The notes beneath the pieces are model-generated. The model was not told the DNA's origin and did no database searches. It saw only the letters and a list, made by a program, of their open reading frames with translations. 64,000 nucleotides of DNA from Thermodesulfobacteriota bacterium (GTDB lineage: Bacteria > Desulfobacterota > Desulfarculia > JACQYL01): positions 256,001 through 320,000 of the forward strand of contig CAXXLZ010000001.1 in the NCBI GenBank assembly GCA_963675595.2, read 5' to 3'. Positions 26,435-49,825 of the stretch are shown here, piece by piece. The position numbers and the translations under genes were made by a program. The stretch's first letter is position 1. Every line of letters starts with the position of its first letter.

Positions 26435-27679
26435 ATGGAACTGGTTCATTCCGCCGCCCAGGATATTGTGGAAGAATCTACACCCAAAACCGGCCCCGCC
26501 AAGGAAGTGGTCGCTCTGGCCATTCAAGCGACTCAGGAGGTCTTTCGATACGCGGACAAGACCCACCCGGGCGTTGCCGTGCTGTTCAAACTGGGAGTCC
26601 GACGCCGAGCCAGGGCCATGAGCTTTGGAAGCGATCCGGGCGTTGCCAGGGAGAGACTGTTCCTGAAGCAACTGGCCCCCGGCACTCGCAGGCCGGAAGA
26701 GCCTATGGGCTGCGGTCCTTACCGCATACAAGCGCCCGTGGTCGACCTGCCCTCGACGCCCAATATCTATGATCGTTTGGCGGAGGCGGTGCAGGTGGGA
26801 CGAAAATCGCCTCAGGGGCTGAAAGACATCATTGCCGATCACGAAGGCTTGGAGTCAAATTTACTCCTCGCGGCCAACCTGGGGCTGTACGGTGAGGTCG
26901 GTCGAATCGATAACCTGGAACGTGCGGCGGCGCTCATCGGCGGAGACATGCTGTATTCTCTGGCGGCTTGCTTGGTGGTGATGGAGGATTTTCGGGATGT
27001 TCCGGAAGACCTCACGGAAGCGCGGGCATTTTTCCAGCATGGTTTGGCCGCCGGGGTTCTGGCACGTACCATTGCTTCCACCACGGAATTCGGAGACTAT
27101 TTACGTTTTTTTCTGGCCGGTTTCCTGCATGATTTGGGGCGGCTCATTGTGTTCAAGAACCGGCCCGGTGGGGCTGCACGGGCTCTGGCCAAAGCTCGGG
27201 AGAAGCAGGTCTTCCTTTCGTCGGTGGAGCCCGAGGAAATCGGATATGATCATGCCACCGCGGGAGGCGCCTTTCTGCGTCGATGGAATTTCCAGAGACC
27301 GATCCGTATCGCCGTTCTTAACCATCACGTGCCGGAAATAGCCGCCTCGGTGCGGGAAAGCGCCGTGATACACTTGGCGGATGCCATGAGTCGGGCCATG
27401 GGATACGGGTTCTCCGGCGAGTTCTTCGTGCCTCCGATTCGGGAGGCGGCTTGGGAATCTCTGGATTTGAGCCCCAAGGACCTCAAGGAGATCGGTCTGA
27501 GAGCGATGGAAATTCTCGATCCCCTTCTGGGCACGGAAGAGGTCGAGATGAGTGCCTCCGTTCCGGAGGTTAAGACCTCTGCCGACCCTGAGCCGAAGCC
27601 TTCCCAGTCGGAGCCCGTGCCTCAAGAAGGTGCATCCGCCGAGGTGGAAGACGCGGAAGTTCCATTCGAGTTCTTCTGA
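26435..27679 (+). CDS. HDOD domain protein
   Basis: LLLAANLGLYG, FLAGFLHDLGRL, GYDHATAG, NHH. Confidence 0.8.
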   Translation: MELVHSAAQDIVEESTPKTGPAKEVVALAIQATQEVFRYADKTHPGVAVLFKLGVRRRARAMSFGSDPGVARERLFLKQLAPGTRRPEEPMGCGPYRIQAPVVDLPSTPNIYDRLAEAVQVGRKSPQGLKDIIADHEGLESNLLLAANLGLYGEVGRIDNLERAAALIGGDMLYSLAACLVVMEDFRDVPEDLTEARAFFQHGLAAGVLARTIASTTEFGDYLRFFLAGFLHDLGRLIVFKNRPGGAARALAKAREKQVFLSSVEPEEIGYDHATAGGAFLRRWNFQRPIRIAVLNHHVPEIAASVRESAVIHLADAMSRAMGYGFSGEFFVPPIREAAWESLDLSPKDLKEIGLRAMEILDPLLGTEEVEMSASVPEVKTSADPEPKPSQSEPVPQEGASAEVEDAEVPFEFF

Positions 27680-33343: not shown

Positions 33344-33370
33344 TAAAGTAATTTCGCCGTTAGTCGATGT
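33344..33370 (+). promoter_or_regulatory. Sigma28-type promoter, distal copy 1
   Basis: TAAA-N15-GTCGATGT. Confidence 0.7.
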
Positions 33371-33377
33371 GTAAAGT

Positions 33378-33460
33378 GACAACGAGATGCCAGTCTCAAA
33401 CTCCTGATTGAATGAAGAGGACAACCCCGTTCCCGTGTTGCAGGTGCCGGCACATCTGTG
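33378..33460 (+). ncRNA. Flagellin-antisense structured element, copy 1 (ends approximate)
   Basis: GAGAT-GCCA-GTCTC hairpin; CTCCTGATTGAATG antisense to the flagellin SD region; CAGGTG-CCGGCA-CATCTG hairpin. Confidence 0.6.
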
Positions 33461-34218
33461 ACCCCGGAGCCCACGAGCGTGAAGGAAGCGTTTCGCTTTC
33501 CCGCTCGGAAAGGAGATTGAAGCACCCATCCAAATAGACGCTTTCTGAAGGATTTTCAAGTGGGGTCCGGTTCAACGCCTCCCGCAGCCGGAACGGGCAG
33601 ACCGGCCGAAAGGGAACGAGGGCGTCGGAGACCCCGACGAGAGAAACGAGAACCGTAAACGGGAGTCCCGTTTGATCGAATTTCGCGTAGCGATGAAGAG
33701 ACCGAATACCCAAGGAGAACGCGGAGAATACTACCAATTGATGACGTAGCGGATTTGGCGAGGTGCTCCTCGGTCCCATCCCATGCTCGATTTCAGCGCC
33801 GCCGACCGCGGCGGGGGCGTTGCGAGGGGAGGACCCGGGCTGAGAAGTCAAGACCATCTTGAGGCGTCGAGGTCTTTGGGGAAGCTGAAAGCCGTATTCA
33901 CGGCTTTGGCGAGCCGCGAGCCTTTAGGTTTCGTTCGCGTCCACCGCCGGGGCACAATGCATTTTCAGCGGTGGGAACCTCATCCATATTATTCTGAAGC
34001 ACAATCGGCAGTCGTCTATCTAAATTCACCCAAAACTTTCGAAGCCTCGACTCAACAGGAAGTGGAATCTCCGTTCCGCCTCCTCTTATCTCGAGCAGTA
34101 CCCTCCTCTTTTGCCCTAATCCGACATCTATTGCACGAATCGGCCACCGGAAAGCAAGCTCGGGAGACCATTTGTCCCGCATAAAGGCTCCGATTGTGAA
34201 AAAAATTTGTTCTCATGC

Positions 34219-34245
34219 TAAAGTTGGTTCACAAAGTGACGATAT
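34219..34245 (+). promoter_or_regulatory. Sigma28-type promoter of flagellin 1
   Basis: TAAA-N15-GACGATAT, about 190 nt upstream of the ATG. Confidence 0.72.
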
Positions 34246-34438
34246 CCAAAGCGAAGCTGTTGAATAAATCGATGAATCCAAACCGAGATTAAAAGTTTTT
34301 TACAGATTTCGTTTTTCGAAGGGAGGAATTCGAAAGAATATAAACCGGAACATCAAAAACGTCATTTGCCGGATGACGCGACGAACAACCATGCGGGGAA
34401 GGGAGTCCCCTAAGCATTCAATCAAGGAGGATTGAGAA

Positions 34439-37285
34439 ATGGCATTATCCGTTGTTAACAATCTTGCATCTTTTTCCGCCCAGCAGGCCCTCACCAAGAG
34501 CACGTACCATCTTCAGAAGGCCCTGAATCATCTTTCCACCGGCTACCGCATCAACAGTGCGGCGGACGATCCCTCCGGCTTGGCCATTTCCGAGCGATTT
34601 CGCGGTCAGATTCGAGGCCTGGAGCGCGCCACGGCCAACGCCCTGGATGCTCAGTCCATGCTGCAGACCGCCGAAGGCTCGCTGGGGGAAACGCACGCCA
34701 TTCTTCAGCGCATGCGGGAACTGGCCGTTCAGGCGGCCAACGGCGTGCTCACCGGAAGCGACAGACAGGAACTGCAGCGCGAGGTGGATCAATTAAAGGA
34801 AGAAATCGACCGCATCGCCACGGCTACCGAGTTCAATACCAAGAAGCTTCTCGATGGATCCTCGGCCGCCCTGTGGAGCGCGGACGGATCGGATATCACC
34901 GCGATCATCCGAGGTCGCGTTGTGGAAGGAAACTACAAGCTGGTCAAGAACGCCGAGCCCCTGACCAATCATGTGTTGAAAACGGACATTTTTCGTTTGA
35001 AGGACGGAGCGATCTCACAAGAGGAGGAAGGGTCCGCCAACCAGTTGCGCTTCACCTTCGGTGGGGATGACGGTGAATTAACCGTGGCGGGCGGATCGAC
35101 CCTGAATTTCCGTTTCAACTTCGACGGTGTGAACAACATCGATATCGGGGTAACGGCGGGATCCGCGGACGGAAGCGGATTTACGGACGCCGAATACCTG
35201 GCGAGGGTGATCAACGCCAACTCGACCATCAGCCGATACGTCGAGGCCGAATTGGTTTCCGAAGGCGATATTGTTTTGCGGTCCAAAGAAGTCACGGAAA
35301 TCGGAGACAATTATACTCTGCAACTGGTCACCGCCGGGGGCGGGGCTTCCGCGGTGGCGGCGTGGCAGCCCAACATTACCAATTGGGGCGGAGATGAGTT
35401 GAGCTCGACCCAGACGAGCAACAACCTCTGGACTACCGCGGTACGATTCGCCGATTTCGATCTTGTTGTGGGGTCGACGGCATCGGGAACCATGGGAACC
35501 TTCGGCACGGACCGCGCGACGGCCGCCGAGAACAAAGTGATCCAATATGTGAGTAATGCGGCGGAGCTCGAGGGCGGCGACTACGAAATCACCACTGTGG
35601 CGGCGGATAACATCCCCAGCGGCCTGCAGGGTGCGGATGGTTTGAGCGTCGACGCCGGCTTGCTCATGGGCGCCTATATGAAGAGCTCTTCCACTGCGGA
35701 AGTCACCACGATTCAGGCCGCCGTGGACGCAAACCATTACGTGATCGTCGAGGTCACCGGGGCCGGCGGGAGCGGCGTGGTGGACCTCAAAGTCTCCTGG
35801 GATCAGGGCGCCACCTGGACCAACATCGGCAACTACCATGAGGGCGCGTCAATTAATAAGCTAGCCGGGGATCCGGATAACTGGTTCTCCTTGCAGTTCA
35901 ACGGCGATATGGCTACGGGGGACCGTTTGCTCATCGGATTGCAGAATGGAATCGCAGCGACCTCCAACGTGGCGCGGCTCACGGGTCCCGCCAACGAATG
36001 GACCAACATAGCGGATTCCGACGGTGGATGGGACCCGAGGGAGAACCTCGCCGGCGCGGACTTCCAGTATTTCAATCATGGGCTTTGGGAAGATTTGGGT
36101 GCCAACCCGGGAAGCAAAACCGATACTTTGACCTTTGCCCGCATGGACGAGGAAGGACGCGTAACCTTTGGCACGCTGGACGTCACCTGGGGCACCGATG
36201 CCAACTTCGAGAGCAGAAGTTCGAGCATCAACATTCTCCAAGGGGGAGACGTCGCCGGCTTGACCACGGAACTGTCCAAAATCGACCGGTTCTACGACGC
36301 CAATGGAAATTTTATTCTGGGCGATAACGGCAAGTGGATCGACATCTACACCGCCGCGGGAGATCAGGCTTCTTTTTATGTGGACGGCGGCGACACGGTA
36401 AAGGAGCTTGCCGATAAGATCGAGCAGATCATCAGCCTGGAGGCCACCTCTCAAAACTGGGAAGGCCTGGGATTGGGCACCGTACTGGATTCCGAAGGCG
36501 AGAATCATGTGGTGGACTTTGTTACCAACGCCACGGAGAACTCCGACGAAGCGGTCAAGGGAACCCTGCTCATTCGGTCGCCGAAACAAGGATTGAGCGG
36601 AATCCTTTACTTCAGCGCGGAAGAAGCCGTGCTCAACGCTCTGAGTCTGGCCACGATTAAGGACCCGTCCGAGGACGTGGACCCGTTGACGGTTGAGGTA
36701 TACGATGCGCACACGGGGGAATTGATCGGACAGGATACGGTAAGCGACAACGTGCTTCACGGCGTCATCCAGGGAGTTGATGTTCTGGTGGACGCCAATG
36801 TGGACATCAATTACTCCTGGAACGAAAACACCAAAGAAATCGACTTCTACAGCGCCACCGAAGACCAGATCGAATACCTGCACGTTGTGGACAACTCGGT
36901 GAATTTTCAGATCGGCGCCAACCCCGGGCAAATCATGGAAGCTCATATCTCACAGATGGATGCTTTGGGGCTCGGAATCGAAAACGTGCTGGTCGTGAAC
37001 CAAGCCACGGCAGTGGCCGCCTTGGACAGCATCGATGAGGCCATCCAACGGGTGTCTTCAGAACGCGCCCGACTGGGTGCCTATGTCAACCGACTCGATT
37101 TCACCATTTCGAACCTGGCCGTTCAGGAGGAGAATCAGATCGCAGCCGAGTCCCTGATTCGCGACCTCGACATGGCCATGGCCATCTCGGAGATGACCCA
37201 GTACCAGATTCTGCAGCAGGTGGGCGTTGCCATGTTGGCTCAGGCCAATGCCATGCCTCAGAGCCTCCTCAGCCTGCTCGGATAA
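34439..37285 (+). CDS. fliC: Flagellin 1 (948 aa)
   Basis: LSTGYRINSAADDPSGLAISE, LQRMRELAVQAAN, FQIGAN, RARLGAYVNRL, AMLAQAN. Confidence 0.96.
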   Translation: MALSVVNNLASFSAQQALTKSTYHLQKALNHLSTGYRINSAADDPSGLAISERFRGQIRGLERATANALDAQSMLQTAEGSLGETHAILQRMRELAVQAANGVLTGSDRQELQREVDQLKEEIDRIATATEFNTKKLLDGSSAALWSADGSDITAIIRGRVVEGNYKLVKNAEPLTNHVLKTDIFRLKDGAISQEEEGSANQLRFTFGGDDGELTVAGGSTLNFRFNFDGVNNIDIGVTAGSADGSGFTDAEYLARVINANSTISRYVEAELVSEGDIVLRSKEVTEIGDNYTLQLVTAGGGASAVAAWQPNITNWGGDELSSTQTSNNLWTTAVRFADFDLVVGSTASGTMGTFGTDRATAAENKVIQYVSNAAELEGGDYEITTVAADNIPSGLQGADGLSVDAGLLMGAYMKSSSTAEVTTIQAAVDANHYVIVEVTGAGGSGVVDLKVSWDQGATWTNIGNYHEGASINKLAGDPDNWFSLQFNGDMATGDRLLIGLQNGIAATSNVARLTGPANEWTNIADSDGGWDPRENLAGADFQYFNHGLWEDLGANPGSKTDTLTFARMDEEGRVTFGTLDVTWGTDANFESRSSSINILQGGDVAGLTTELSKIDRFYDANGNFILGDNGKWIDIYTAAGDQASFYVDGGDTVKELADKIEQIISLEATSQNWEGLGLGTVLDSEGENHVVDFVTNATENSDEAVKGTLLIRSPKQGLSGILYFSAEEAVLNALSLATIKDPSEDVDPLTVEVYDAHTGELIGQDTVSDNVLHGVIQGVDVLVDANVDINYSWNENTKEIDFYSATEDQIEYLHVVDNSVNFQIGANPGQIMEAHISQMDALGLGIENVLVVNQATAVAALDSIDEAIQRVSSERARLGAYVNRLDFTISNLAVQEENQIAAESLIRDLDMAMAISEMTQYQILQQVGVAMLAQANAMPQSLLSLLG

Positions 37286-37307
37286 CCTGCGGTCCGCGAC
37301 GCAATTC

Positions 37308-37344
37308 AAGGCGGGGCTCCGTTTCGGAGCCCCGCCTTCTTTTT
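37308..37344 (+). terminator. Intrinsic terminator of flagellin 1
   Basis: AAGGCGGGGCTCC-GTTTC-GGAGCCCCGCCTT then CTTTTT. Confidence 0.88.
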
Positions 37345-37693
37345 CGTAACGGTTCTCCTCCACGCCCGCCCATTTCTTCTCGGGATACCTTCGGATTCCG
37401 ATTTCGGTGACATCTCGAGCCGCCGCCACTCGTGCTTCGGCCGGACGCCGGCACACGAAGCGCTTCCCAGCCTCCGCGTCGTCCTCCGTTCCTGCATTCG
37501 TGAGAGTTGAAATCGGTACAACCCCTTAATTCCCGTCGCCGTTGACGTTATGGGCGCAGGTTGAGGCACGGCGAGGCCTCGAAGACCCGTCTGAATCGGT
37601 TGTCTTGGTGGCGTTTTCCCGGCGCTAAGGTATGCGATGGAGTAAAATTTCAATTTATGAACAAAGTCGAACACGATTTTTCTTTTATAAATG

Positions 37694-37720
37694 TAAAGTA
37701 TTTTCGCCGTTTGACGATGT
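37694..37720 (+). promoter_or_regulatory. Sigma28-type promoter, distal copy 2
   Basis: TAAA-N15-GACGATGT; spacer nearly identical to copies 1 and 3. Confidence 0.72.
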
Positions 37721-37726
37721 AAGAAT

Positions 37727-37825
37727 CAAACAGGTAATGCCACCTGAACTCCTTGATTGAATGCGGATTGGGAAGCCGAAAACTCCCGGGTGCCGGCACA
37801 TCCGGAAGAAAAAGGCGAAGTTAAC
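37727..37825 (+). ncRNA. Flagellin-antisense structured element, copy 2 (ends approximate)
   Basis: CAGGT-AATGCC-ACCTG hairpin; 37749-37773 is the exact reverse complement of 42277-42301; CCGGGTG-CCGGCA-CATCCGG hairpin. Confidence 0.68.
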
Positions 37826-38057
37826 CGTCACGACACACAAGAAACATCGCAACGGATGGGAGGATGATCCATCTTTCGTTAAGTCGTCGGATTCGGGCCG
37901 CCCGGGGTCGGGCATCAAACTCCGTGCAATGCTTTTCCGGCCTCCGGGATAGTCGTTAGGAACGGCACGAACCCCGAATATTCAAATCTTTCTCTCCTTT
38001 TTGATCAGCCGACAGTCCCCGGTTGAGCGCAAAATGCGCTTTTCCGCGCCTTGACAC

Positions 38058-38084
38058 TCAAGTTCGTCCGTTTCACACCGATAC
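38058..38084 (+). promoter_or_regulatory. Sigma28-type promoter of flagellin 2
   Basis: TCAA-N15-ACCGATAC, at a position equivalent to the flagellin 3 promoter. Confidence 0.6.
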
Positions 38085-38345
38085 AATTTGCGGGTAACTG
38101 CGGGGATCGCACCCGTCTCAAGCGGACGTGCATGCGATTTCCCTATCGTCTTTTGGTGATGCACGTTGATCCGAGCACCCTTGCCGGAGGGAGAGCGGAG
38201 GCGATGTGCATTGCTGCGGAAAGGGGGGGATAAGCCAACTAGAGCGCACTATTCCGTTGAGAATCGCCCCATAAGGGGACATCTCACGATGCCTTAGACG
38301 AGGGAATGGATTCCCGATCTGAGTTCAATCAAGGAGGATTGATTC

Positions 38346-41162
38346 ATGGCATTGACTGTTGTCAATAATATTGCTTCATTCGCTGCTCAGAAGGCCCTCA
38401 GTTCGAGTACCACTCACCTGCAGAACGCCCTGAACAGCCTTTCCACCGGCCTCCGCATCAACAGCGCGGCGGACGACCCGTCCGGACTGGCGATTTCCGA
38501 GCGGTTCCGCAGCCAGATTCGAGGCTTGGAACGCGCCACGTCCAACGCCTTGGACGCTCAGTCCATGCTGCAAACCGCGGAAGGCTCCCTCGGAGAAACC
38601 CACGCCATCCTGCAACGTATGCGCGAACTGGCGGTTCAAGCGGCCAACGGCGTGTTGACCGCAAGCGACCGGCAGGAAGTTCAGCGCGAAGTGGACCAGC
38701 TCAAAGAAGAAATCAACCGCATCGCCAACACCACCGAGTTCAACACCAAGAAACTGCTGGACGGTTCCTCCACGGCCCTTTGGAGCGCGAACAATTCCGA
38801 CATTGAAGCGGTCATTCGCGGAAAGGTGGCCGAAGGCAACTACAAGCTGGTGAAGAGTGCGGAGCCGCTGAGCAACCAGGTACTGAAGACGGATATCTTC
38901 CGGCTGAAAGACGGGGCCATCTCCCAGGCGGAAGAGGGTTCTCCGAACCAGATGCGGTTCACTTTCGGCGGATCGGATGCGACAATAGACGGAACCGGGG
39001 CGTCGACATTGACGTTCCGGTTCAACTTCGACGGCGTGAACAACATAGACGTATCGTTGAACTCGGCGTCGGGAGACGCCGCCCTCTTAACCGACGCGCG
39101 GTATTTGGTGGATGCCCTCAACGCCAACGCGACCATCAGCCAATACGTCGAAGTGGAGCTGGTGTCCAACTCGGACATTATCATTCGGTCCAAGGGGGTA
39201 ACGGACGAAAGCGACAATTATACCCTTCAGCTGGTGACCGGCGGAGGCGGTGCGTCGGCCGTGGCGGCGTGGCAGGCCAACATCACCAACTGGAGCGGAG
39301 ATGAGCTGAGTTCGACCCAGGCGACCAACAACCTCTTTACTTCCGCGGTCCGTTTCGCGGATTTCGATCAGATCGAAGGTCAGGTGAACTCGGGAGTGAC
39401 GGGCACCTTCGGAACGGACCGAACCACGGCCGCGCAGAACAAGGTGATCCAGTATGTGAGCAACGCCGAGAACCTCGAAGGGGGCGATTACGAAATCCTT
39501 ACCCTGTCGGCGAACGACTTTCCGAGCGGTACGGCGGGCGGAATCGGCGCTGTGGACTCCGCGTGGATTTTGGGCGCTCATCGACAAAGTTCGTCCACGG
39601 GAGAGATCGTGACCCTTACGGCGAGCGTTGACGAGAACCAGTACGTCATCGTCGAAGTGACCGGCGCAGGGGGCAGCGGCGTGGTGGACCTGAAGGTTTC
39701 CTGGGACCAGGGAGAAACCTGGACCAATGTTGGGAACTATCATGATGGGACTTCCATCAATAAGACTACCGGAGACCCGGCCAACTGGTTCTCCATGGAC
39801 TTGAACGGTGACTTGGCCACCGGCGACCGGTTCCTTTTCGGTCTGCAGGACCAATTGGATACGACCTCCAACTATGCCAGGCTGACGGGTCCCGCCAACG
39901 ATTGGTCGACCAGCTTGACCGCGGATCTGACGGAAGACTACGAGAACTTCAACCACGGGTTATGGCAGGACCTGGGAGCCAATCCGGGTGAGAAGACCCA
40001 TACCCTGACGCTTGCGAGCATGGACGAGGAAGGACGGGTGACCTTCGGCACCCTCGATGCCACCTGGGGAATGGATGACGATTTCGAGAGCCGAAGCTCG
40101 AACATCAAGATTCTCGAGGGCGGCGACGTTGCCGGTCTGACCACGGAGTTGTCCAAGATCGATCGATTCTACGACTCCAGCGGGAACTTCGTCCTGGGCG
40201 ACAGCGGCAAATGGATCGATGTCTACACCGCCGACGGAGACAACGCGTCGTTCTACGTGGACGGCGGTGATACGGTTCAGGAGCTTGCCGACAAGCTGGA
40301 ACAGATCATCAGCCTAACCTCGACTTCCCAAAACTGGGATGGTCTGGGGCTGGGCACGGTGCTGGACTCCGACGGCGAGAACCACGTGGTGGATTTCGTT
40401 ACCAACGCCACGGAGAACTCCGACGAAGCCGTCGAAGGAACCATGATCATTCGTTCGCCCAAACAAGGGGTCAACGGCTACCTCTATTTCAGTGCGGAGG
40501 AAGACCTGCTCAACGCCCTGAGTTTGGCCACCATCCAGGACCCCAAGGAAGACATCGATCCTCTCACGGTCACCGTATACAACGCCCACACGGGCGAGTT
40601 GATCGGCGAGGACACGGTGAGCGACAACGTCCTGCACGGAGTCATCCAGGGTGTGGACGTAATGGTGGACGCCAATGTGGACATCTCTTACTCCTGGAAC
40701 GATGATACTCGAGAGATCGACTTCTACAGTTCGGAAGGAGTGCAGGAAGAGTACCTCCACGTGGTGGACAATTCGGTGAACTTCCAGATCGGCGCCAACC
40801 CGGGCCAAGTGATGGAAGCCTACATCACACAGATGGATACCGTGGGATTGGGCGTTCAAAACGTTCTGGTGGTGAACCAGGAGACGGCCTCCGATGCCAT
40901 GTCCACCATCGACGACGCCATCCAAAGGGTGTCCTCGGAACGCGCCAGGCTGGGCGCTTACGTGAACCGTCTCGACTTTACCATCTCGAACCTGGCGGTT
41001 CAGGAGGAAAACCAGATCGCGGCGGAATCTTTGATCCGCGACCTGGATATGGCCAAGGCCATTTCCGAAATGACCCAGTACCAGGTGTTGCAGCAGGTGG
41101 GTGTGGCCATGCTGGCCCAGGCCAATACCTTGCCTCAGATGGTGCTGTCCCTACTCCGGTAA
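38346..41162 (+). CDS. fliC: Flagellin 2 (938 aa)
   Basis: Conserved flagellin N- and C-terminal motifs; paralog of its neighbours. Confidence 0.96.
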   Translation: MALTVVNNIASFAAQKALSSSTTHLQNALNSLSTGLRINSAADDPSGLAISERFRSQIRGLERATSNALDAQSMLQTAEGSLGETHAILQRMRELAVQAANGVLTASDRQEVQREVDQLKEEINRIANTTEFNTKKLLDGSSTALWSANNSDIEAVIRGKVAEGNYKLVKSAEPLSNQVLKTDIFRLKDGAISQAEEGSPNQMRFTFGGSDATIDGTGASTLTFRFNFDGVNNIDVSLNSASGDAALLTDARYLVDALNANATISQYVEVELVSNSDIIIRSKGVTDESDNYTLQLVTGGGGASAVAAWQANITNWSGDELSSTQATNNLFTSAVRFADFDQIEGQVNSGVTGTFGTDRTTAAQNKVIQYVSNAENLEGGDYEILTLSANDFPSGTAGGIGAVDSAWILGAHRQSSSTGEIVTLTASVDENQYVIVEVTGAGGSGVVDLKVSWDQGETWTNVGNYHDGTSINKTTGDPANWFSMDLNGDLATGDRFLFGLQDQLDTTSNYARLTGPANDWSTSLTADLTEDYENFNHGLWQDLGANPGEKTHTLTLASMDEEGRVTFGTLDATWGMDDDFESRSSNIKILEGGDVAGLTTELSKIDRFYDSSGNFVLGDSGKWIDVYTADGDNASFYVDGGDTVQELADKLEQIISLTSTSQNWDGLGLGTVLDSDGENHVVDFVTNATENSDEAVEGTMIIRSPKQGVNGYLYFSAEEDLLNALSLATIQDPKEDIDPLTVTVYNAHTGELIGEDTVSDNVLHGVIQGVDVMVDANVDISYSWNDDTREIDFYSSEGVQEEYLHVVDNSVNFQIGANPGQVMEAYITQMDTVGLGVQNVLVVNQETASDAMSTIDDAIQRVSSERARLGAYVNRLDFTISNLAVQEENQIAAESLIRDLDMAKAISEMTQYQVLQQVGVAMLAQANTLPQMVLSLLR

Positions 41163-41674
41163 ACTGAAACCATAATGATCCATAGGGGGCCCCGCATGAC
41201 CGGGCTCCCGCAACGGATCGAGTCCGGTGTCGAGGCGAACCGCCTCGGCATCGTTCTCTCCAAACCCAATTCGGGACCAAAACCGGTTCAAGGCCATTCC
41301 CTCCCCGAAGCCTGCCCGGTTCGCCCGGATCACCTTCGGCTCCCCAGCTGCGGAGCGGGTTTCGTCACGGAGCCGCGCTCCACCTTTTCGACATCCCCTC
41401 CATATGGCTCCTCAGGAGCGCTCTTCTTGTCGTTTCTCGCAAAGTGCGCCACCGTTATCATTTCATGGATCTAAGAATAAGCAAGGGGTGAGGTAGACGC
41501 CTCATTTCGTTAATAGTGGTTGTAGTGCCGACGATTGACCCTCCATTCACGAAACGCCTGAAACCTTAGGTTTCTATCTGTGGTTTCGGTGCCGGCTTTG
41601 CGCTCCTTATCATGATGACGGAGTGCGATTTGAAGTCATGGTGAAACCTAAAGACGATTTTTTTCATATGAAGG

Positions 41675-41701
41675 TAAAGTAATTTCGCCGGTTGACGATA
41701 T
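41675..41701 (+). promoter_or_regulatory. Sigma28-type promoter, distal copy 3
   Basis: TAAA-N15-GACGATAT. Confidence 0.72.
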
Positions 41702-41707
41702 ACAAAT

Positions 41708-41806
41708 CAAACAGGTAATGCCACCTGAACTCCTTGATTGAATGCAGATTGGGAAGCCCGCAACTCCCGGGTGCCGGCACACCCGGAAGAAAAAGGCCGA
41801 GTTAAC
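41708..41806 (+). ncRNA. Flagellin-antisense structured element, copy 3 (ends approximate)
   Basis: CAGGT-AATGCC-ACCTG; CTCCTTGATTGAATGCAGATTGGGA (41730-41754); CCGGGTG-CCGGCA-CACCCGG. Confidence 0.68.
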
Positions 41807-42031
41807 GCATCAACCCCGTGACGAACCTAGGTGAAGAAATCCACAGGAGGTGTTTTTCTCAAAACCATAAATCGCCGGCCCGTCACAGCCCATCCAGAGG
41901 CGTCGGGGTTCCCGTTCCATGCCCTTCTATTTTCAGGGTTGACGGGAGGTCGCTCGCGCTCTGGTACCTCCCCGCCTTACGTTCAACCCCCCTCGGGCGA
42001 ACGCAAGATACGTTTTCCTATGCCCTGAAGC

Positions 42032-42058
42032 TAAAGTTCCGCCTTTCCATGCCGATGC
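42032..42058 (+). promoter_or_regulatory. Sigma28-type promoter of flagellin 3
   Basis: TAAA-N15-GCCGATGC, close to the FliA consensus TAAA-N15-GCCGATAA. Confidence 0.8.
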
Positions 42059-42310
42059 TATAACCGACCGACTATCGGATTTGCACGAGTCTCGTGAAGA
42101 CGTGCGTGCAGATTTCCATCTCCGAGGCGCGAGCCGCTGATCCGTGGACCCTTGCCGGAGGGCGAACGGGGATGACAAGCGCCGCGGCGAAAGGGGGGAT
42201 GCCCGGAAATATGCTGATTCTTGGGGGACGTCCCATGGGAGGGAAGTCTCTCAAAACCTCAGACAAGGGAATGGAATCCCAATCCGCATTCAATCAAGGA
42301 GGATTGATTC

Positions 42311-45157
42311 ATGGCATTGACTGTTGTCAACAACATTGCTTCCTTTGCTGCTCAGAAGGCGCTCAGCTCGAGTACCACTCACCTGCAGAACGCCCTGAAC
42401 AGCCTTTCCACCGGCCTTCGCATCAACAGCGCGGCGGACGATCCGTCCGGACTGGCGATTTCCGAGCGGTTCCGCAGCCAGATTCGGGGCTTGGAACGCG
42501 CCACGTCCAACGCCTTGGACGCCCAGTCCATGCTGCAAACCGCGGAAGGTTCTCTCGGAGAAACCCACGCCATCCTGCAACGTATGCGCGAACTGGCGGT
42601 TCAGGCGGCCAACGGCGTGTTGACCGCAAGCGACCGGCAGGAAGTTCAGCGCGAAGTGGACCAGCTCAAGGAAGAGATCAACCGCATCGCCAACACCACC
42701 GAGTTCAACACCAAAAAGCTACTGGACGGCTCCTCCACGGCCCTCTGGAGCGCGAACAATTCCGACATTGAAGCGGTGATTACGGGAAAGGTGTCCGAAG
42801 GCAACTACAAACTGGTGAAGAGCGCCGAGCCGCTCAGTAACCATGTGTTGAAGACGGACATTTTCCGGCTGAAAGACGGAGCCATCTCGCAGGCCGAAGA
42901 GGGGTCCGCGAACCAGATGCGCCTCACTTTCGGTGGAGACGACGGAGAAGTGACCGTCGCAGGCGGATCGACCCTGAACTTCCGGTTCAACTTCGACGGT
43001 GTAAACAACATCGATATCGGAGTAACCGCAGGATCCGCCGACGGCACGGGCTTTACGGACGCTGAATATCTGGCGCGGGCCATCAACGCCCACTCGACCA
43101 TCAGCCAGTACGTGGAGGCGGAACTGGTGTCCGAGGGCGATATCATTATTCGCGCCAAGGATGTGACGGACGACAGCGACAACTACACGCTGCAAATGGT
43201 GACCGCCGGAGGCGGCGCGTCGGCCGTGGCGGCGTGGCAGCCCAACATCACCAATTGGGGCGGTGATGAACTTAGCTCGACCCAGACGAGCAATAACCTC
43301 TGGACTTCCGCGGTCCGTTTCGCGGATTTCGATCAGATCGAAGGTACGGTCAACTCGGGAGTCACGGGCACCTTCGGTACGGATCGGACCACCGCCGCCG
43401 AGAACAAGGTGATCCAGTACGTCAGCAACGCCGCCGATCTCGAAGCGGGCGACTATCAGATCACAACGGTGGCAACGGGCGACATCCCCAGCGGTTTGCA
43501 GAGTACGGACGGTCTGACCGTGGATCAGGGTCTGCTCATGGGCGCTTATCTCACGAGCACGTCCACGGCGGAAGTCACGACGATTCAGGCGGCCGTGGAT
43601 GAGAATCAGTACGTTATCGTCGAGGTGACGGGAGCCGGCGGCAGCGGCGCGGTGGACCTGAAGGTTTCCTGGGACCAGGGCGCCACATGGTCCAGTGTCG
43701 GGAACTACCACGAAGGAACCTCCATCAACAAGGTCGCCGGAGACCCGGACAACTGGTTCACGCTGGAATTCACCGGGGACATGGCGACCGGAGACCGCTT
43801 GCTTATCGGGCTCCAGAACGGGATTGCAGCGACTTCCAACGTGGCGAGGCTGACCGGTCCGGCCAACGAATGGACCAATGTAACGGATTCCGACGGAGAT
43901 TGGGACCCGAGGGAAAACCTGGCCGGGGCGGATTACCAAACCTTCAATCATGGGCTGTGGGAAGACCTGGGGGCCAATCCCGGTGAGAAGACCCATACCC
44001 TGACGTTTGCGAGCATGGACGATGAAGGGCGGGTGACCTTCGGCACCCTCGACGCCACCTGGGGCGCGGATGACGACTTCGAGAGCCGAAGCTCGAGCAT
44101 CAAGATTCTCGAGGGCGGCGACGTCGCCGGTCTGACCACGGAGTTGTCCAAGATCGATCGGTTCTACGACTCCAGCGGGAACTTCGTCCTGGGCGACAGC
44201 GGCAAATGGATCGATATCTACACCGCAGAAGGAGACAACGCGTCGTTCTATGTGGACGGCGGCGACACGGTGCAGGAGCTTGCCGACAAGCTGGAGCAGA
44301 TCATCAGTCTCACCTCGACTTCCCAGAACTGGGATGGTCTGGGGCTGGGCACGGTGCTGGACTCCGACGGCGAGAACCACGTGGTGGATTTCGTTACCAA
44401 CGCCACGGAGAACTCCGACGAAGCCGTCGAAGGAACCATGATCATTCGTTCGCCCAAACAAGGGGTCAACGGCTACCTCTATTTCAGTGCGGAGGAAGAC
44501 GTACTCAACGCCCTGAGTTTGGCCACCATCCAGGACCCCAAAGAAGACATCGATCCTCTCACGGTCACCGTATACAACGCCCACACGGGTGAGTTGATCG
44601 GTGAGGATACGGTGAGCGACAACGTCCTGCACGGAGTCATCCAGGGTGTGGACGTGATGGTGGACGCCAATGTGGACATCTCCTACTCCTGGAACGAGGA
44701 TACTCGAGAGATCGACTTCTTCAGTTCGGAAGGAGTGCAGGAAGAGTACCTCCACGTGGTGGACAATTCGGTGAACTTCCAGATCGGCGCCAACCCGGGC
44801 CAAGTGATGGAAGCCTATATCACACAGATGGACACCGTGGGATTGGGCGTTCAGAACGTTCTGGTGGTGAACCAGGCGACGGCCTCCGATGCCATGTCCA
44901 CCATCGACGACGCCATCCAGAAGGTGTCCTCGGAACGCGCCAGGCTCGGCGCCTACGTGAACCGTCTCGACTTCACCATCTCGAACCTGGCGGTTCAGGA
45001 GGAAAACCAGATCGCGGCGGAATCTTTGATCCGCGACCTGGATATGGCCAAGGCCATTTCCGAAATGACCCAGTATCAGGTGTTGCAGCAGGTGGGTGTG
45101 GCCATGCTGGCCCAGGCCAACACGTTGCCTCAGATGGTGCTGTCCTTACTCCGGTAA
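42311..45157 (+). CDS. fliC: Flagellin 3 (948 aa)
   Basis: Conserved flagellin termini; patchwork similarity to flagellins 1 and 2. Confidence 0.96.
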   Translation: MALTVVNNIASFAAQKALSSSTTHLQNALNSLSTGLRINSAADDPSGLAISERFRSQIRGLERATSNALDAQSMLQTAEGSLGETHAILQRMRELAVQAANGVLTASDRQEVQREVDQLKEEINRIANTTEFNTKKLLDGSSTALWSANNSDIEAVITGKVSEGNYKLVKSAEPLSNHVLKTDIFRLKDGAISQAEEGSANQMRLTFGGDDGEVTVAGGSTLNFRFNFDGVNNIDIGVTAGSADGTGFTDAEYLARAINAHSTISQYVEAELVSEGDIIIRAKDVTDDSDNYTLQMVTAGGGASAVAAWQPNITNWGGDELSSTQTSNNLWTSAVRFADFDQIEGTVNSGVTGTFGTDRTTAAENKVIQYVSNAADLEAGDYQITTVATGDIPSGLQSTDGLTVDQGLLMGAYLTSTSTAEVTTIQAAVDENQYVIVEVTGAGGSGAVDLKVSWDQGATWSSVGNYHEGTSINKVAGDPDNWFTLEFTGDMATGDRLLIGLQNGIAATSNVARLTGPANEWTNVTDSDGDWDPRENLAGADYQTFNHGLWEDLGANPGEKTHTLTFASMDDEGRVTFGTLDATWGADDDFESRSSSIKILEGGDVAGLTTELSKIDRFYDSSGNFVLGDSGKWIDIYTAEGDNASFYVDGGDTVQELADKLEQIISLTSTSQNWDGLGLGTVLDSDGENHVVDFVTNATENSDEAVEGTMIIRSPKQGVNGYLYFSAEEDVLNALSLATIQDPKEDIDPLTVTVYNAHTGELIGEDTVSDNVLHGVIQGVDVMVDANVDISYSWNEDTREIDFFSSEGVQEEYLHVVDNSVNFQIGANPGQVMEAYITQMDTVGLGVQNVLVVNQATASDAMSTIDDAIQKVSSERARLGAYVNRLDFTISNLAVQEENQIAAESLIRDLDMAKAISEMTQYQVLQQVGVAMLAQANTLPQMVLSLLR

Positions 45158-48194: not shown

Positions 48195-48986
48195 TTACAC
48201 GTTTCTATGGATAGGAGTGAAGAAAACCTTTTCCGAAGGCTTCGCGTCCAGAAACCCGGCGACGGGACTCAGGTCGGCCAAGCGACGGGTAAGGTTGGGC
48301 CAAAACCCCTCTCCACCCAAGTGGAGCCACCCGCCGATGTGGACGAGAACACCGCCTGATGCGGCCTTTGTCCGAGCCCAAAGACGCCGGATTTTACGCT
48401 CCATGGTATCGGTCCTTCGATTCCATTCCACCGACGTATCGCCATCCATAAGAATCAGCTCCCAAGGCGCAGACTTTCCGTGAAAGCGGACGGCCACTTG
48501 CTTTCTGAGGTTTTCGAAACTCTCGGATGGGTGACGGGGCGCGAGTCTAAGCATGGCCTCGAGATTGGGCATCGAGATCAGTTCTTCGAGAAATGGGAGC
48601 TTGTTTTTTGAGGATTCCGAGTCGTCCGTGCAAACCACCGTTGTAGACCTGGAATGGGCGTAGTCCCGGCTCGCGCTGAACTCGAAAGGCAGGGCGATCT
48701 GGTTCCTGATGTTCCGAAATGGCTCGAGCTGGAGGATGGACTCGATCTCAAGGTTTCTTTTTTTTGCCAGAAGACGCAGCCGCTCATCGAGGAGTTGCAG
48801 TTGTCTACGGGCGTGCTTCATTCGGAAACGGACTGCATAGGGACTGGTTTCGACACTGACGATCGTGGGACCGATGCGGTCGAGCATTCGCTTAAGCAGT
48901 TCTTCCCCTCTCGGGTCCCTGTGGATCGTACCAAGAAGGAAAAGACGGGCTTCCGGAACGGCTGTGGAGTCCGCCGAAGGGCTCAA
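48195..48986 (-). CDS. Hypothetical protein
   Basis: 263-aa ORF overlapping the HDOD gene stop; LLGTIHRDP and HIGGWLH motifs. Confidence 0.65.
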   Translation of the reverse strand: MSPSADSTAVPEARLFLLGTIHRDPRGEELLKRMLDRIGPTIVSVETSPYAVRFRMKHARRQLQLLDERLRLLAKKRNLEIESILQLEPFRNIRNQIALPFEFSASRDYAHSRSTTVVCTDDSESSKNKLPFLEELISMPNLEAMLRLAPRHPSESFENLRKQVAVRFHGKSAPWELILMDGDTSVEWNRRTDTMERKIRRLWARTKAASGGVLVHIGGWLHLGGEGFWPNLTRRLADLSPVAGFLDAKPSEKVFFTPIHRNV

Positions 48987-49825
48987 GTCTTCAGGAGGAA
49001 GGGCGTTCGTTTGAGCTCTCGCTTCAGTTCGGCGAGGCTGCGATCCATGACGTCCTCCGTCAATCCCGCAATTTCCAGAACGTCGCGAAACTCACGGAAG
49101 CTCCAATTATCCACGCCGAGTCCGATGCCGGCCAGCTTGCAGCATCGGTCGGCGAGATAGATCAGGGCCGTGATGGGGTGCCCTTTCCGAACTTCCTCAA
49201 TGGTGTGGTGAGTGCGTATGGGTTCACTGATGCTTGACGGGAGCTGCCATTTATCGGCCACCTCTCCCCCCACGGCGGCGTGGTCGATACCGATGATCTC
49301 TCGTTCCGCTTCCACGAAAGTGTAATTCTCTTCAGTAACCAAGTGCATAATTTCCCGAAATCGGTCTTGGACAAAAGAGTTCAGAACGACCTTGCCGATG
49401 TCGTGCAGCAGGCCGGCGGTGAAGAGGGCCGAGGGGTCCGCCTCAGGATTGGAAGCACCCAGAATTTGCGCCAGGAGGGCGCAGGAAACGGAGTGACGCC
49501 ACATCTCCCGAGCCGCCATTCCGTACCCGGGAACATCGGTGGTGTAGTAACTTAGAGACCCTCCGATGACGGCCAGCTCGATCACCTCCTGTGGGCCCAG
49601 AAGCTGAACGGCGCGCCGAAGAGAGCTGATTTCCTCCTGAAAGCCGAAATATCCCGAGTTACATAGCCGCAGCACCGTGGCTGTGATGTTTTGGTCGTAC
49701 TTGATCACATCCACAATCTCTCCCGGAGGAGCGTTCCGGCTCCGCATCAGATCGAAGGCTCTGTGAACCGTCGCCGGAAAAGGAGGAAGACTTTTGATGG
49801 AATAGAGTATTTTCTGACCCACCAT
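48983..49825 (-). CDS. HDOD domain protein
   Basis: SLPPFP, DQNITATVLRLCNSGYFG, WRHS, AGLLHDIGK, GIDHAAVG. Confidence 0.92.
   Translation of the reverse strand: MVGQKILYSIKSLPPFPATVHRAFDLMRSRNAPPGEIVDVIKYDQNITATVLRLCNSGYFGFQEEISSLRRAVQLLGPQEVIELAVIGGSLSYYTTDVPGYGMAAREMWRHSVSCALLAQILGASNPEADPSALFTAGLLHDIGKVVLNSFVQDRFREIMHLVTEENYTFVEAEREIIGIDHAAVGGEVADKWQLPSSISEPIRTHHTIEEVRKGHPITALIYLADRCCKLAGIGLGVDNWSFREFRDVLEIAGLTEDVMDRSLAELKRELKRTPFLLKT

Follow-up and report, generated by a model that had tools for sequence, protein, structure and literature searches.

Three homologous non-coding cassettes stand ahead of three giant flagellin genes in a 64,000-nucleotide (nt) stretch of the genome of a Thermodesulfobacteriota bacterium (contig CAXXLZ010000001.1, positions 256,001 to 320,000; "the window" below means this whole stretch, and its numbering is used unless another contig is named). 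The explanation that serves best, to which we would give a rough probability of 0.55, is that the cassettes are small non-coding genes, each making an antisense RNA from its own FliA promoter. Such an RNA would probably be a family-restricted repressor of flagellin translation, layered on leaders of the CsrA-FliW type. What appears from sequence comparison to be the strongest evidence for a function is the covariation between cassette and cognate leader. Conserved, promoter-bearing non-coding units that change together with the initiation region of their own leader fit what a functional antisense RNA predicts. Flagellin is among the costliest proteins of a motile cell and its translation is gated by CsrA and FliW; with a dedicated antisense RNA on that ribosome-binding site, the checkpoint would also work at the level of RNA, in a lineage apparently lacking Hfq.

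Architecture of the cassettes

The locus is built of three tandem + strand units, each closing with a giant flagellin gene:

34439..37285, + strand, flagellin 1, 948 amino acids, Pfam Flagellin_N and Flagellin_C
38346..41162, + strand, flagellin 2, 938 amino acids, Pfam Flagellin_N and Flagellin_C
42311..45157, + strand, flagellin 3, 948 amino acids, Pfam Flagellin_N and Flagellin_C

Upstream of each gene lies a + strand cassette (33344-33470, 37694-37826 and 41675-41806), whose promoter begins 1095, 652 and 636 nt before the flagellin start in cassettes 1, 2 and 3, respectively. That three homologous cassettes share a set of blocks had been claimed in a preliminary description of this DNA, and alignment bears this out: TAAAGT-N13-G(A/T)CGAT, ATGCCA, TGATTGAATG and GGTGCCGGCACA are invariant among the three. 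The blocks follow one another in the order promoter, ATGCCA (exactly 18 nt past CGAT), CTCC(T)TGATTGAATG (complementary to the Shine-Dalgarno, SD, region), and a hairpin around GGTGCCGGCAC. The pattern TGATTGAATG-N15-50-GGTGCCGGCAC has three forward matches and no reverse match in the whole 6.79 Mb genome, and the reversed-pattern control has none. The parts of the cassettes are as follows:

33344..33370, + strand, cassette 1 distal sigma28-type promoter (TAAAGT ... GTCGATGT), invariant block, predicted start near 33378
33378..33470, + strand, cassette 1 predicted RNA, 3' hairpin 33437-33462 with loop CCGGCA 33447-33452
33387-33392 and 33401-33414, + strand, cassette 1 pairing blocks, anti-start ATGCCA and anti-SD CTCCTGATTGAATG
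37694..37720, + strand, cassette 2 distal sigma28-type promoter, motif
37727..37826, + strand, cassette 2 predicted RNA, 3' hairpin 37786-37805 with loop CCGGCA 37793-37798
37737-37742 and 37749-37763, + strand, cassette 2 pairing blocks, ATGCCA and anti-SD, conserved island ending near 37826
41675..41701, + strand, cassette 3 distal sigma28-type promoter, motif
41708..41806, + strand, cassette 3 predicted RNA, 3' hairpin 41767-41786 with loop CCGGCA 41774-41779
41718-41723 and 41730-41744, + strand, cassette 3 pairing blocks, ATGCCA and anti-SD

Cassette 1 is preceded by a minus-strand open reading frame (ORF) and not by a flagellin gene, and a strong intrinsic terminator (37308-37338; a 14-bp stem with 11 GC pairs, and a T-run) stands between flagellin 1 and cassette 2; after flagellin 2 there are only weak terminator-like sites (41407 and 41485). 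At gathering thresholds nothing in the window matches an Rfam family, and permissive scans returned chance-level matches only. Each cassette also holds a tiny ATG-initiated frame of 6-10 codons (MP..., ending in TGA; 33387-33407, 37737-37760 and 41718-41741) lacking a plausibly spaced SD, and because ATGC is the complement of GCAT these frames are probably by-products.

Complementarity to the cognate leaders

The proposal that the cassettes are complementary to the start and SD region of the flagellins holds far beyond chance. When each cassette is aligned by Smith-Waterman with its own leader, reverse-complemented, the scores are 41, 42 and 54, where 500 shuffles give a mean of about 16-17 and a maximum of 27, and cofold binding energies of the three local pairs are -29 to -35.5 kcal/mol. 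With two orthologous loci from sister genera added (L008 and L009), the five pairs span -27 to -35.5 kcal/mol; dinucleotide shuffles yield -6 to -11, and for every pair none of 60 shuffles reaches the observed value (pairing was assessed by cofold in this way, RNAduplex on long inputs returning uninformative global duplexes). Base-pairing with a flagellar mRNA, as is expected of sigma28-dependent base-pairing small RNAs (sRNAs), was thereby found in silico. The perfect match between 37749-37773 of cassette 2 and, reverse-complemented, the flagellin 3 leader at 42277-42301 was recovered as first described (25/25; minus-strand match C1:298277-298301).

The alignment of each cassette with its own reverse-complemented leader extends from about codon 6 to beyond the SD, and the match is made gene by gene. 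The spacer between SD and AUG reads UUGAGAA in unit 1 and faces GUCUCAA in the cassette, in L008 UUGAAAC faces GUUUUAA, and in L009 UUGAAUC faces GAUUCA; codons 2-6 vary from gene to gene, and each time the own cassette mirrors them. Upstream of the SD, GUAACGCUUUG of the L008 cassette is complementary to CAAAGCGUUAC of its own leader and GGCGAUGUG of the L009 cassette to CACAUCGCC of its own, while in units 2 and 3 the complementarity continues through UCCCAAUC(C/U)GCAUUCAAUC. When five cassettes were compared with ten leaders in a Smith-Waterman matrix, the cognate leader came out on top for four of the five; cassette 2 scores highest with leader 3, above its own downstream leader 2. A blind search for any upstream stretch antisense to its own leader was positive at all five cassette loci (z 4.3-15) and negative at the seven other flagellin loci of the order. 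It was likewise negative at 33 distant loci, the usable part of 37 flagellin loci of other phyla gathered by a contig search with flagellin 2 (L037, L045, L053 and L054 have short or missing upstream sequence and were excluded). The lone distant signal, z 4.8 at L032, was rejected as two GC-rich palindromic terminators matching each other.

These comparisons also bear on the idea that the cassette acts as DNA, for instance by binding a flagellar regulator or by serving recombination between flagellin units, its complementarity being incidental. The block GGTGCCGGCACC is indeed near-palindromic, as protein-binding sites often are, but such an element leaves both the cognate-specific complementarity across genera and the matching leader hairpin loop described below unexplained, and we give it next to no credence.

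A putative loop-loop site shared with the leaders

The flagellin leaders of the array contain the following elements:

34219..34438, + strand, flagellin 1 proximal promoter (34219-34244) and leader, UUGCCGG-loop hairpin 34358-34381
34395-34410 and 34424-34430, + strand, flagellin 1 leader sites, CsrA-type GGA hairpin and SD AAGGAGG
38058..38345, + strand, flagellin 2 proximal promoter (38058-38084) and leader, UGCCGG-loop hairpin 38173-38196
38302-38315 and 38331-38337, + strand, flagellin 2 leader sites, GGA hairpin and SD
42032..42310, + strand, flagellin 3 proximal promoter (42032-42057) and leader, UGCCGG-loop hairpin 42144-42167
42267-42280 and 42296-42302, + strand, flagellin 3 leader sites, GGA hairpin and SD; 42277-42301 is the perfect complement of cassette 2

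A hairpin with invariant TGCCGG in or at its loop occurs in all six cassette-linked leaders, 70-165 nt before the start codon, the sixth being that of a metagenome contig (L055). It is carried on five different stems, among them the compensatory pair GGUUCC/GGAACC (L008) and GGUUUC/GAAACC (L055), and is found in none of seven cassette-less flagellin leaders. On the other side, the CCGGCA loop of the cassette 3' hairpin has an unpaired probability of 1.00 in four of five copies. The two loops complement each other perfectly and fall in line with the remaining antisense match. They look like a kissing contact from which a longer duplex could nucleate; loop-loop sites of this kind are typical of antisense RNAs that need a collision to find their target. 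The UGCCGG partner hairpin, the CsrA-type sites of the leaders and the cognate-specific covariation across genera are observations that go beyond the preliminary description.

Promoters

The sigma28 consensus, which we take to be TAAA-N15-GCCGATAA, has the spacing of the cassette promoter. It had been stated that each unit has a distal promoter motif of its own besides a proximal flagellin promoter, and both are present, the sigma28-like proximal one at -220, -288 and -279 of flagellins 1, 2 and 3. In its strict TAAAGT form the motif has nine genomic sites: the three cassettes, three proximal flagellin promoters, one site before flgM (63 nt ahead of a FlgM-family ORF) and two unassigned sites, one before a MerR-like ORF and one without an ORF. 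A TCAAGT variant lies 80 nt before fliD; a relaxed pattern is noisy, with 64 matches against 27 for its reversed control. The genome has a FliA gene scoring above the curated cut-off, and the -35 and -10 bases of the cassette promoter are invariant across three genera. To judge from the motif, the cassette RNA is probably transcribed from a sigma28 (FliA) promoter.

The cassette promoters, with their first transcribed bases, are also similar to the proximal promoters of L011 and L076, two paralogues that have no cassette (...CAGCCAATTG(A/T)CGATA...AAAAGCAA...), the sites compared lying at -509 (L008), -293 (L011) and -288 (L076) relative to the start codon. The cassette promoter may, on this likeness, be a copied flagellin promoter.

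CsrA-type leaders and Hfq

A GGA-containing GGGAAnGGAUUCCC hairpin followed by an AUCAAGGAGGA SD is found in nine of the ten leaders examined in the order (the three of the window and L008-L014), L013 being the one that departs. By its sequence this arrangement looks like a two-site CsrA operator. CsrA-FliW control is familiar from the hag leader of Bacillus subtilis, and csrA and fliW are adjacent in the present genome (G000:C2:1771727-1772387; CsrA 87 bits, FliW 131 bits). The two-site layout matches that of CsrA-repressed flagellin leaders such as Campylobacter jejuni flaA, as described in the available portion of the report (PMC4894983). The csrA/fliW pair lies about 4 kb from a Flagellin_N match in a frame of 1435 amino acids (C2:1767311), probably a hook-associated protein. 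The leader of L077, a flagellin outside the window, has a divergent SD region and lacks a GGA hairpin of the usual form.

A search with PF17209 finds no Hfq in this 98% complete genome, and of the features that mark Hfq-dependent sRNAs, neither Hfq itself nor a U-rich 3' end after a terminator was found.

The likeness between cassette and leader could be turned around, if the minus strand were the active one and made a leader mimic, with an SD-like AAGGAG and a start-like triplet, that titrates CsrA or ribosomes. The minus strand does read like a flagellin leader, csrA and fliW are in the genome, and on that strand hairpin 1 of copies 2 and 3, with the T-rich run after it, is scored as a weak terminator-like site. 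However, the most conserved block is the + strand promoter, and, with the island ending at about 37826, the side on which a minus-strand promoter is to be expected has no conserved block. Moreover, the GGA hairpin, the first CsrA-type site, is not copied into the cassette, and the start-like triplet is CTG, GTG, CTG or none across four lineages. We therefore attach very little credence to a minus-strand product.

Conservation and distribution

Flagellins 2 and 3 are 0.79 identical at fourfold sites overall, which makes units 2 and 3 recent duplicates, and flagellin 1 shares 0.50-0.52 of these sites with either, so that unit 1 is much older and has still kept the cassette blocks. Between units 2 and 3 the cassette forms an island of 83-98% identity (37677-37826) consisting of the promoter and about 100 nt, amid intergenic DNA that on both sides is 35-40% identical, the random level, which speaks for purifying constraint on a discrete unit. 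The flagellin leader is 50-70% identical; besides the island, its last ~70 nt are also conserved. The spacer from cassette to proximal promoter varies in length from ~165 to 750 nt among the loci, and those of units 2 and 3 cannot be aligned.

In a covariance-model search of related genomes, a check that the preliminary description had put forward, homologues did come up near flagellins in G001 and G002, covarying with their own leaders. The model (R1) was a sequence-only one built from six cassette copies. Its strong matches (E 1e-20 to 7.5e-26) are confined to family f1, where all three genomes have them: three in the present genome (G000), one in G001 (E 1e-22) and one in G002 (E 1e-20). 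No strong match was found in the other 92 genomes of the class, weak matches in G072, G047, G063 and G053 (E 0.01-0.07) not being counted as such, and none was accepted in 150 other genomes sampled from the phylum. A match in G158 (18.9 bits) lacks a promoter and apparently falls within coding sequence, and one on G001:C90 is merely the proximal promoter of flagellin L011; both were rejected. BLAST of cassette 2 against 40 relatives gave nothing real, a single 20-nt match in G020 being due to chance. A further copy, close to that of G001, lies on the metagenome contig L055.

G001 and G002 each have their cassette ahead of one orthologous giant flagellin, L008 at a distance of ~510 nt and L009 at ~545 nt, and the second flagellins of these genomes (L011 and L012) have none. 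Neither do the three flagellins of G003, which belongs to a sister family. The present genome has five flagellin-size genes, and the cassette accompanies only the three of the tandem array; the two giant flagellins outside the window are without it:

G000:C2:2593583-2596987, flagellin L076, giant, without cassette
G000:C1:1380353-1383760, flagellin L077, giant, without cassette

The earlier claim that each flagellin is paired with a cassette is thus true of three of five genes here and of one of two in each sister genus, but it is not general; because L011, L012, L076, L077 and the G003 flagellins lack a cassette, one per flagellin is a property of the tandem array and not of the system.

A narrow distribution in one family is also what would be seen if the cassettes were non-functional relics, i.e., decaying inverted partial duplicates of a flagellin 5' region, spread by tandem duplication and kept alike by gene conversion. 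From about +18 to the UGCCGG hairpin, cassette and reverse-complemented leader do run in parallel, and the flagellin paralogues are mosaic by conversion. Yet the sigma28 promoter is intact, with the same -35 and -10 bases in three genera, and the island is sharp against its surroundings. The loop complementarity, moreover, has been kept though both hairpin stems diverge, and the copies are rich in indels, conserved pairing blocks being parted by deletions, unlike conversion tracts. A relic is, in our judgement, quite improbable.

As to the mosaic itself, flagellins 2 and 3 have a fourfold-site identity of 0.88-0.96 at both ends and of 0.50-0.78 in mid-gene. Because the identity is high at the ends and low in the middle, this pattern suggests gene conversion of the conserved N- and C-terminal helices.

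A discrete RNA or a long leader

The most serious alternative to a discrete antisense RNA is one that acts in cis. The distal promoter would make a flagellin mRNA with a 5' untranslated region (UTR) of 0.5-1.1 kb, whose 5' end folds onto its own SD and start codon; this long isoform would be silent or RNase-sensitive, the isoform from the proximal promoter would be active, and a free sRNA would be unneeded. The absence of a U-tract after the last hairpin, already pointed out in the preliminary description, agrees with our search, in which no terminator-like site was found on the + strand after the cassettes or between cassette and flagellin. The cassette lies upstream of its target and on the same strand in all five complete loci and in L055, and ORFs in the spacers between cassettes and flagellins have no Pfam match. 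L008 and L055 are 67-90% identical all along from the distal promoter to the leader, and such continuous conservation means that this pair does not delimit a short RNA. The cassette-less L076 likewise has two tandem sigma28-like promoters (-527 and -288), so that a distal promoter alone does not imply an sRNA. Within the available text, MotR of Escherichia coli is described as a sigma28-dependent 5' UTR RNA whose terminator is read through into motAB (PMC10578931).

Several other results, together with the lack of a terminator, the L008/L055 conservation and the L076 promoters, weigh against the antisense gene that we favour. Single-molecule folding of the cassettes is no better than that of shuffles (z -1.1 to -1.3), and RNAalifold on five copies gives -4.2 kcal/mol with seven pairs, two of them compensatory. 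The preliminary conclusion that stem covariation reflects selection on RNA structure accordingly stands for the 3' CCGGCA-loop hairpin but is weakly supported elsewhere, and the 5' hairpin said to expose ATGCC, though predicted for all three local copies, has not been kept by the orthologues in the two sister genera. The CCGGCA itself is largely base-paired in L009, its unpaired probability being 0.32. The blind search at L008 gave one shuffle in 100 above the observed score (35.5 against 30.5), compared with none of 500 in Smith-Waterman. The sample is small and related, three genera and one contig with copies 2 and 3 recent duplicates, and gene conversion between paralogues, of which the flagellin genes bear clear marks, could make cassettes 2 and 3 more alike than they would otherwise be.

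Against the long leader, on the other hand, cassette 2 fits leader 3 better than leader 2, its would-be fusion partner, and the spacers that would be part of the long UTR are unalignable between units 2 and 3. A complementarity of 25-45 nt with a loop-loop site would exceed the need of an intramolecular switch, and one sigma factor reading two promoters to give a silent and an active mRNA would have no obvious regulatory logic. We consider the cis arrangement unlikely as the whole explanation, while giving it appreciable weight.

Between cassette and proximal promoter (-290..-245 of L008, compared with L055) there is also a stem that changes from AGGCG/CGCCU to AGGUG/CACCU, with UUUCGAAAAAAA after it; this may be a structured part of the spacer or weakly signal an end.

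Proposed mechanism and origin

We infer transcription, RNA ends, repression, the kissing step and action in trans from these comparisons, and the scheme that we favour, that of a discrete antisense RNA, would run as follows. FliA (sigma28) would transcribe an RNA of about 90-150 nt from each cassette. Read 5' to 3' and antiparallel to the leader, it would face codons 2-6 and the UG of the start codon, then the SD-AUG spacer, then the SD, which would also be the second CsrA-type GGA site, and finally 10-25 nt upstream of the SD. Its CCGGCA loop would kiss the loop of the UGCCGG hairpin 70-165 nt upstream of the start codon, upon which the duplex would spread across SD, spacer, start codon and first codons, exclude the 30S subunit and then probably be cleaved by a double-strand RNase. 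Because regulator and target share one sigma factor and would be co-induced, the RNA may set a threshold, impose a delay, or balance the paralogous flagellins among one another. At the SD it would compete with CsrA or reinforce it. We favour a discrete RNA acting in trans on cognate and paralogous leaders because cassette 2 fits leader 3 better than leader 2, because the spacers to the proximal promoter are unconserved and variable in length, because the conserved island stops ~100 nt past the predicted start, and because a loop-loop site is present; a read-through, self-silenced long isoform may coexist with it, much as short RNA and read-through do for MotR in E. coli.

The colinearity of cassette and reverse-complemented leader extends over about 100-190 nt, from ~+18 back to the UGCCGG hairpin, with internal deletions. 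A simple origin would be that part of a flagellin 5' region was duplicated in inverted orientation and came to lie behind a flagellin promoter. The cassette would then be an unusually legible case of a base-pairing regulator arising from its own target, given this colinearity and the likeness of its promoter to those of flagellins. The fuller proposal joins all of these elements, namely a bacterial sRNA family that arose from an inverted duplicate of its target leader joined to a copied flagellin promoter, coevolving gene by gene, acting by a kiss and a long duplex, and giving each paralogue its own brake on top of CsrA-FliW. This we put forward tentatively, as a conceivable though somewhat doubtful whole. 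If true, it would document a route by which trans-acting sRNAs originate in bacteria, and the composition of the filament would be controlled paralogue by paralogue. Since cassettes and leaders covary from genus to genus, they offer ready-made compensatory mutants for reporter tests.

Surroundings of the array

The flagellin array does not adjoin other flagellar genes, its neighbours being thioesterase, esterase, thioredoxin-like and DsbD-like proteins, and two HDOD/HD-domain proteins flank it at a distance (window 26435-27676 and 48983-49822). When contig data were compared with the locus, only a ~98% identical strain and repeat-induced joints were seen.

Comparison with known systems

The plasmid antisense RNAs CopA/CopT and RNAI/RNAII employ kissing loops and are encoded opposite their target at the same place. 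The cassette resembles them in having loop-loop complementarity beside a predicted extended duplex over the translation start, and differs in that it lies on the same strand as its target, 0.5-1.1 kb upstream, and not opposite the target at the same locus as a cis-encoded antisense RNA does. The sigma28-dependent sRNAs of E. coli are Hfq-dependent, and PF17209 found no Hfq here. The comparisons that follow go as far as the portions of the cited papers that were available.

Closest in kind is FlaX of Vibrio, an sRNA that lies beside flagellin genes in the flagellar sigma cascade and pairs at several sites, including the ribosome-binding region of flaB, blocking 30S and altering filament composition (PMC11879080; bioRxiv 10.64898/2026.08.28.747715). 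The cassettes likewise lie beside flagellin genes, and would share with it the flagellar sigma wiring, the pairing with the ribosome-binding region and a tuning among paralogous flagellins. However, a single FlaX serves several flagellins and activates some of them, whereas here every unit has its own sigma28-type promoter; cassette complementarity is much longer and specific for the cognate leader, and cassette 1 follows no flagellin gene. No sequence or structure homology to FlaX was found by Rfam gathering and permissive scans.

From the flagellar loci of E. coli come the sigma28-dependent FliX, MotR, UhpU and FlgO, of which the first three pair with fliC mRNA and change the flagellin level (PMC10578931). 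Their fliC sites are short and lie inside the coding sequence, and the RNAs are UTR-derived and also act on ribosomal-protein mRNAs; the MotR 5' UTR with its read-through terminator parallels the ambiguity between short RNA and long leader in the cassettes (PMC10578931). In C. jejuni, CJnc170 and CJnc230 are under flagellar sigma factors and fine-tune filament assembly, the FliA-dependent CJnc170 shortening flagella; their direct targets in the portion available are flgM and Cj1387c and not a flagellin start, and that portion gives no per-flagellin layout (PMC11187230). CsrA-FliW is a protein repressor with a protein antagonist, and the cassette RNA would be an added layer on the same SD site (PMC4894983). 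As an analogy of origin only, plant microRNA genes of the miR163 type were born by inverted duplication of their targets and are, like the cassette, colinear with the reverse complement of the target; miR163 is eukaryotic, Dicer-dependent and directed at coding regions (PMC5388894).

Given FlaX on flaB (PMC11879080) and FliX, MotR and UhpU on fliC (PMC10578931), to call the cassettes a candidate new system, as was done at first, was too strong. In the literature consulted, the supplements of the FlaX papers lying outside its scope, we found no description of the cassette element or of a bacterial sRNA born by inverted duplication of its target. The kind is already known, that of flagellar-cascade sRNAs pairing with the ribosome-binding region of a flagellin mRNA. 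What is distinct here is a promoter of its own just upstream of the target, a long cognate-specific complementarity, a loop-loop site and a copy per gene in the tandem array, together with an apparent descent from the target in a genome that appears to lack Hfq.

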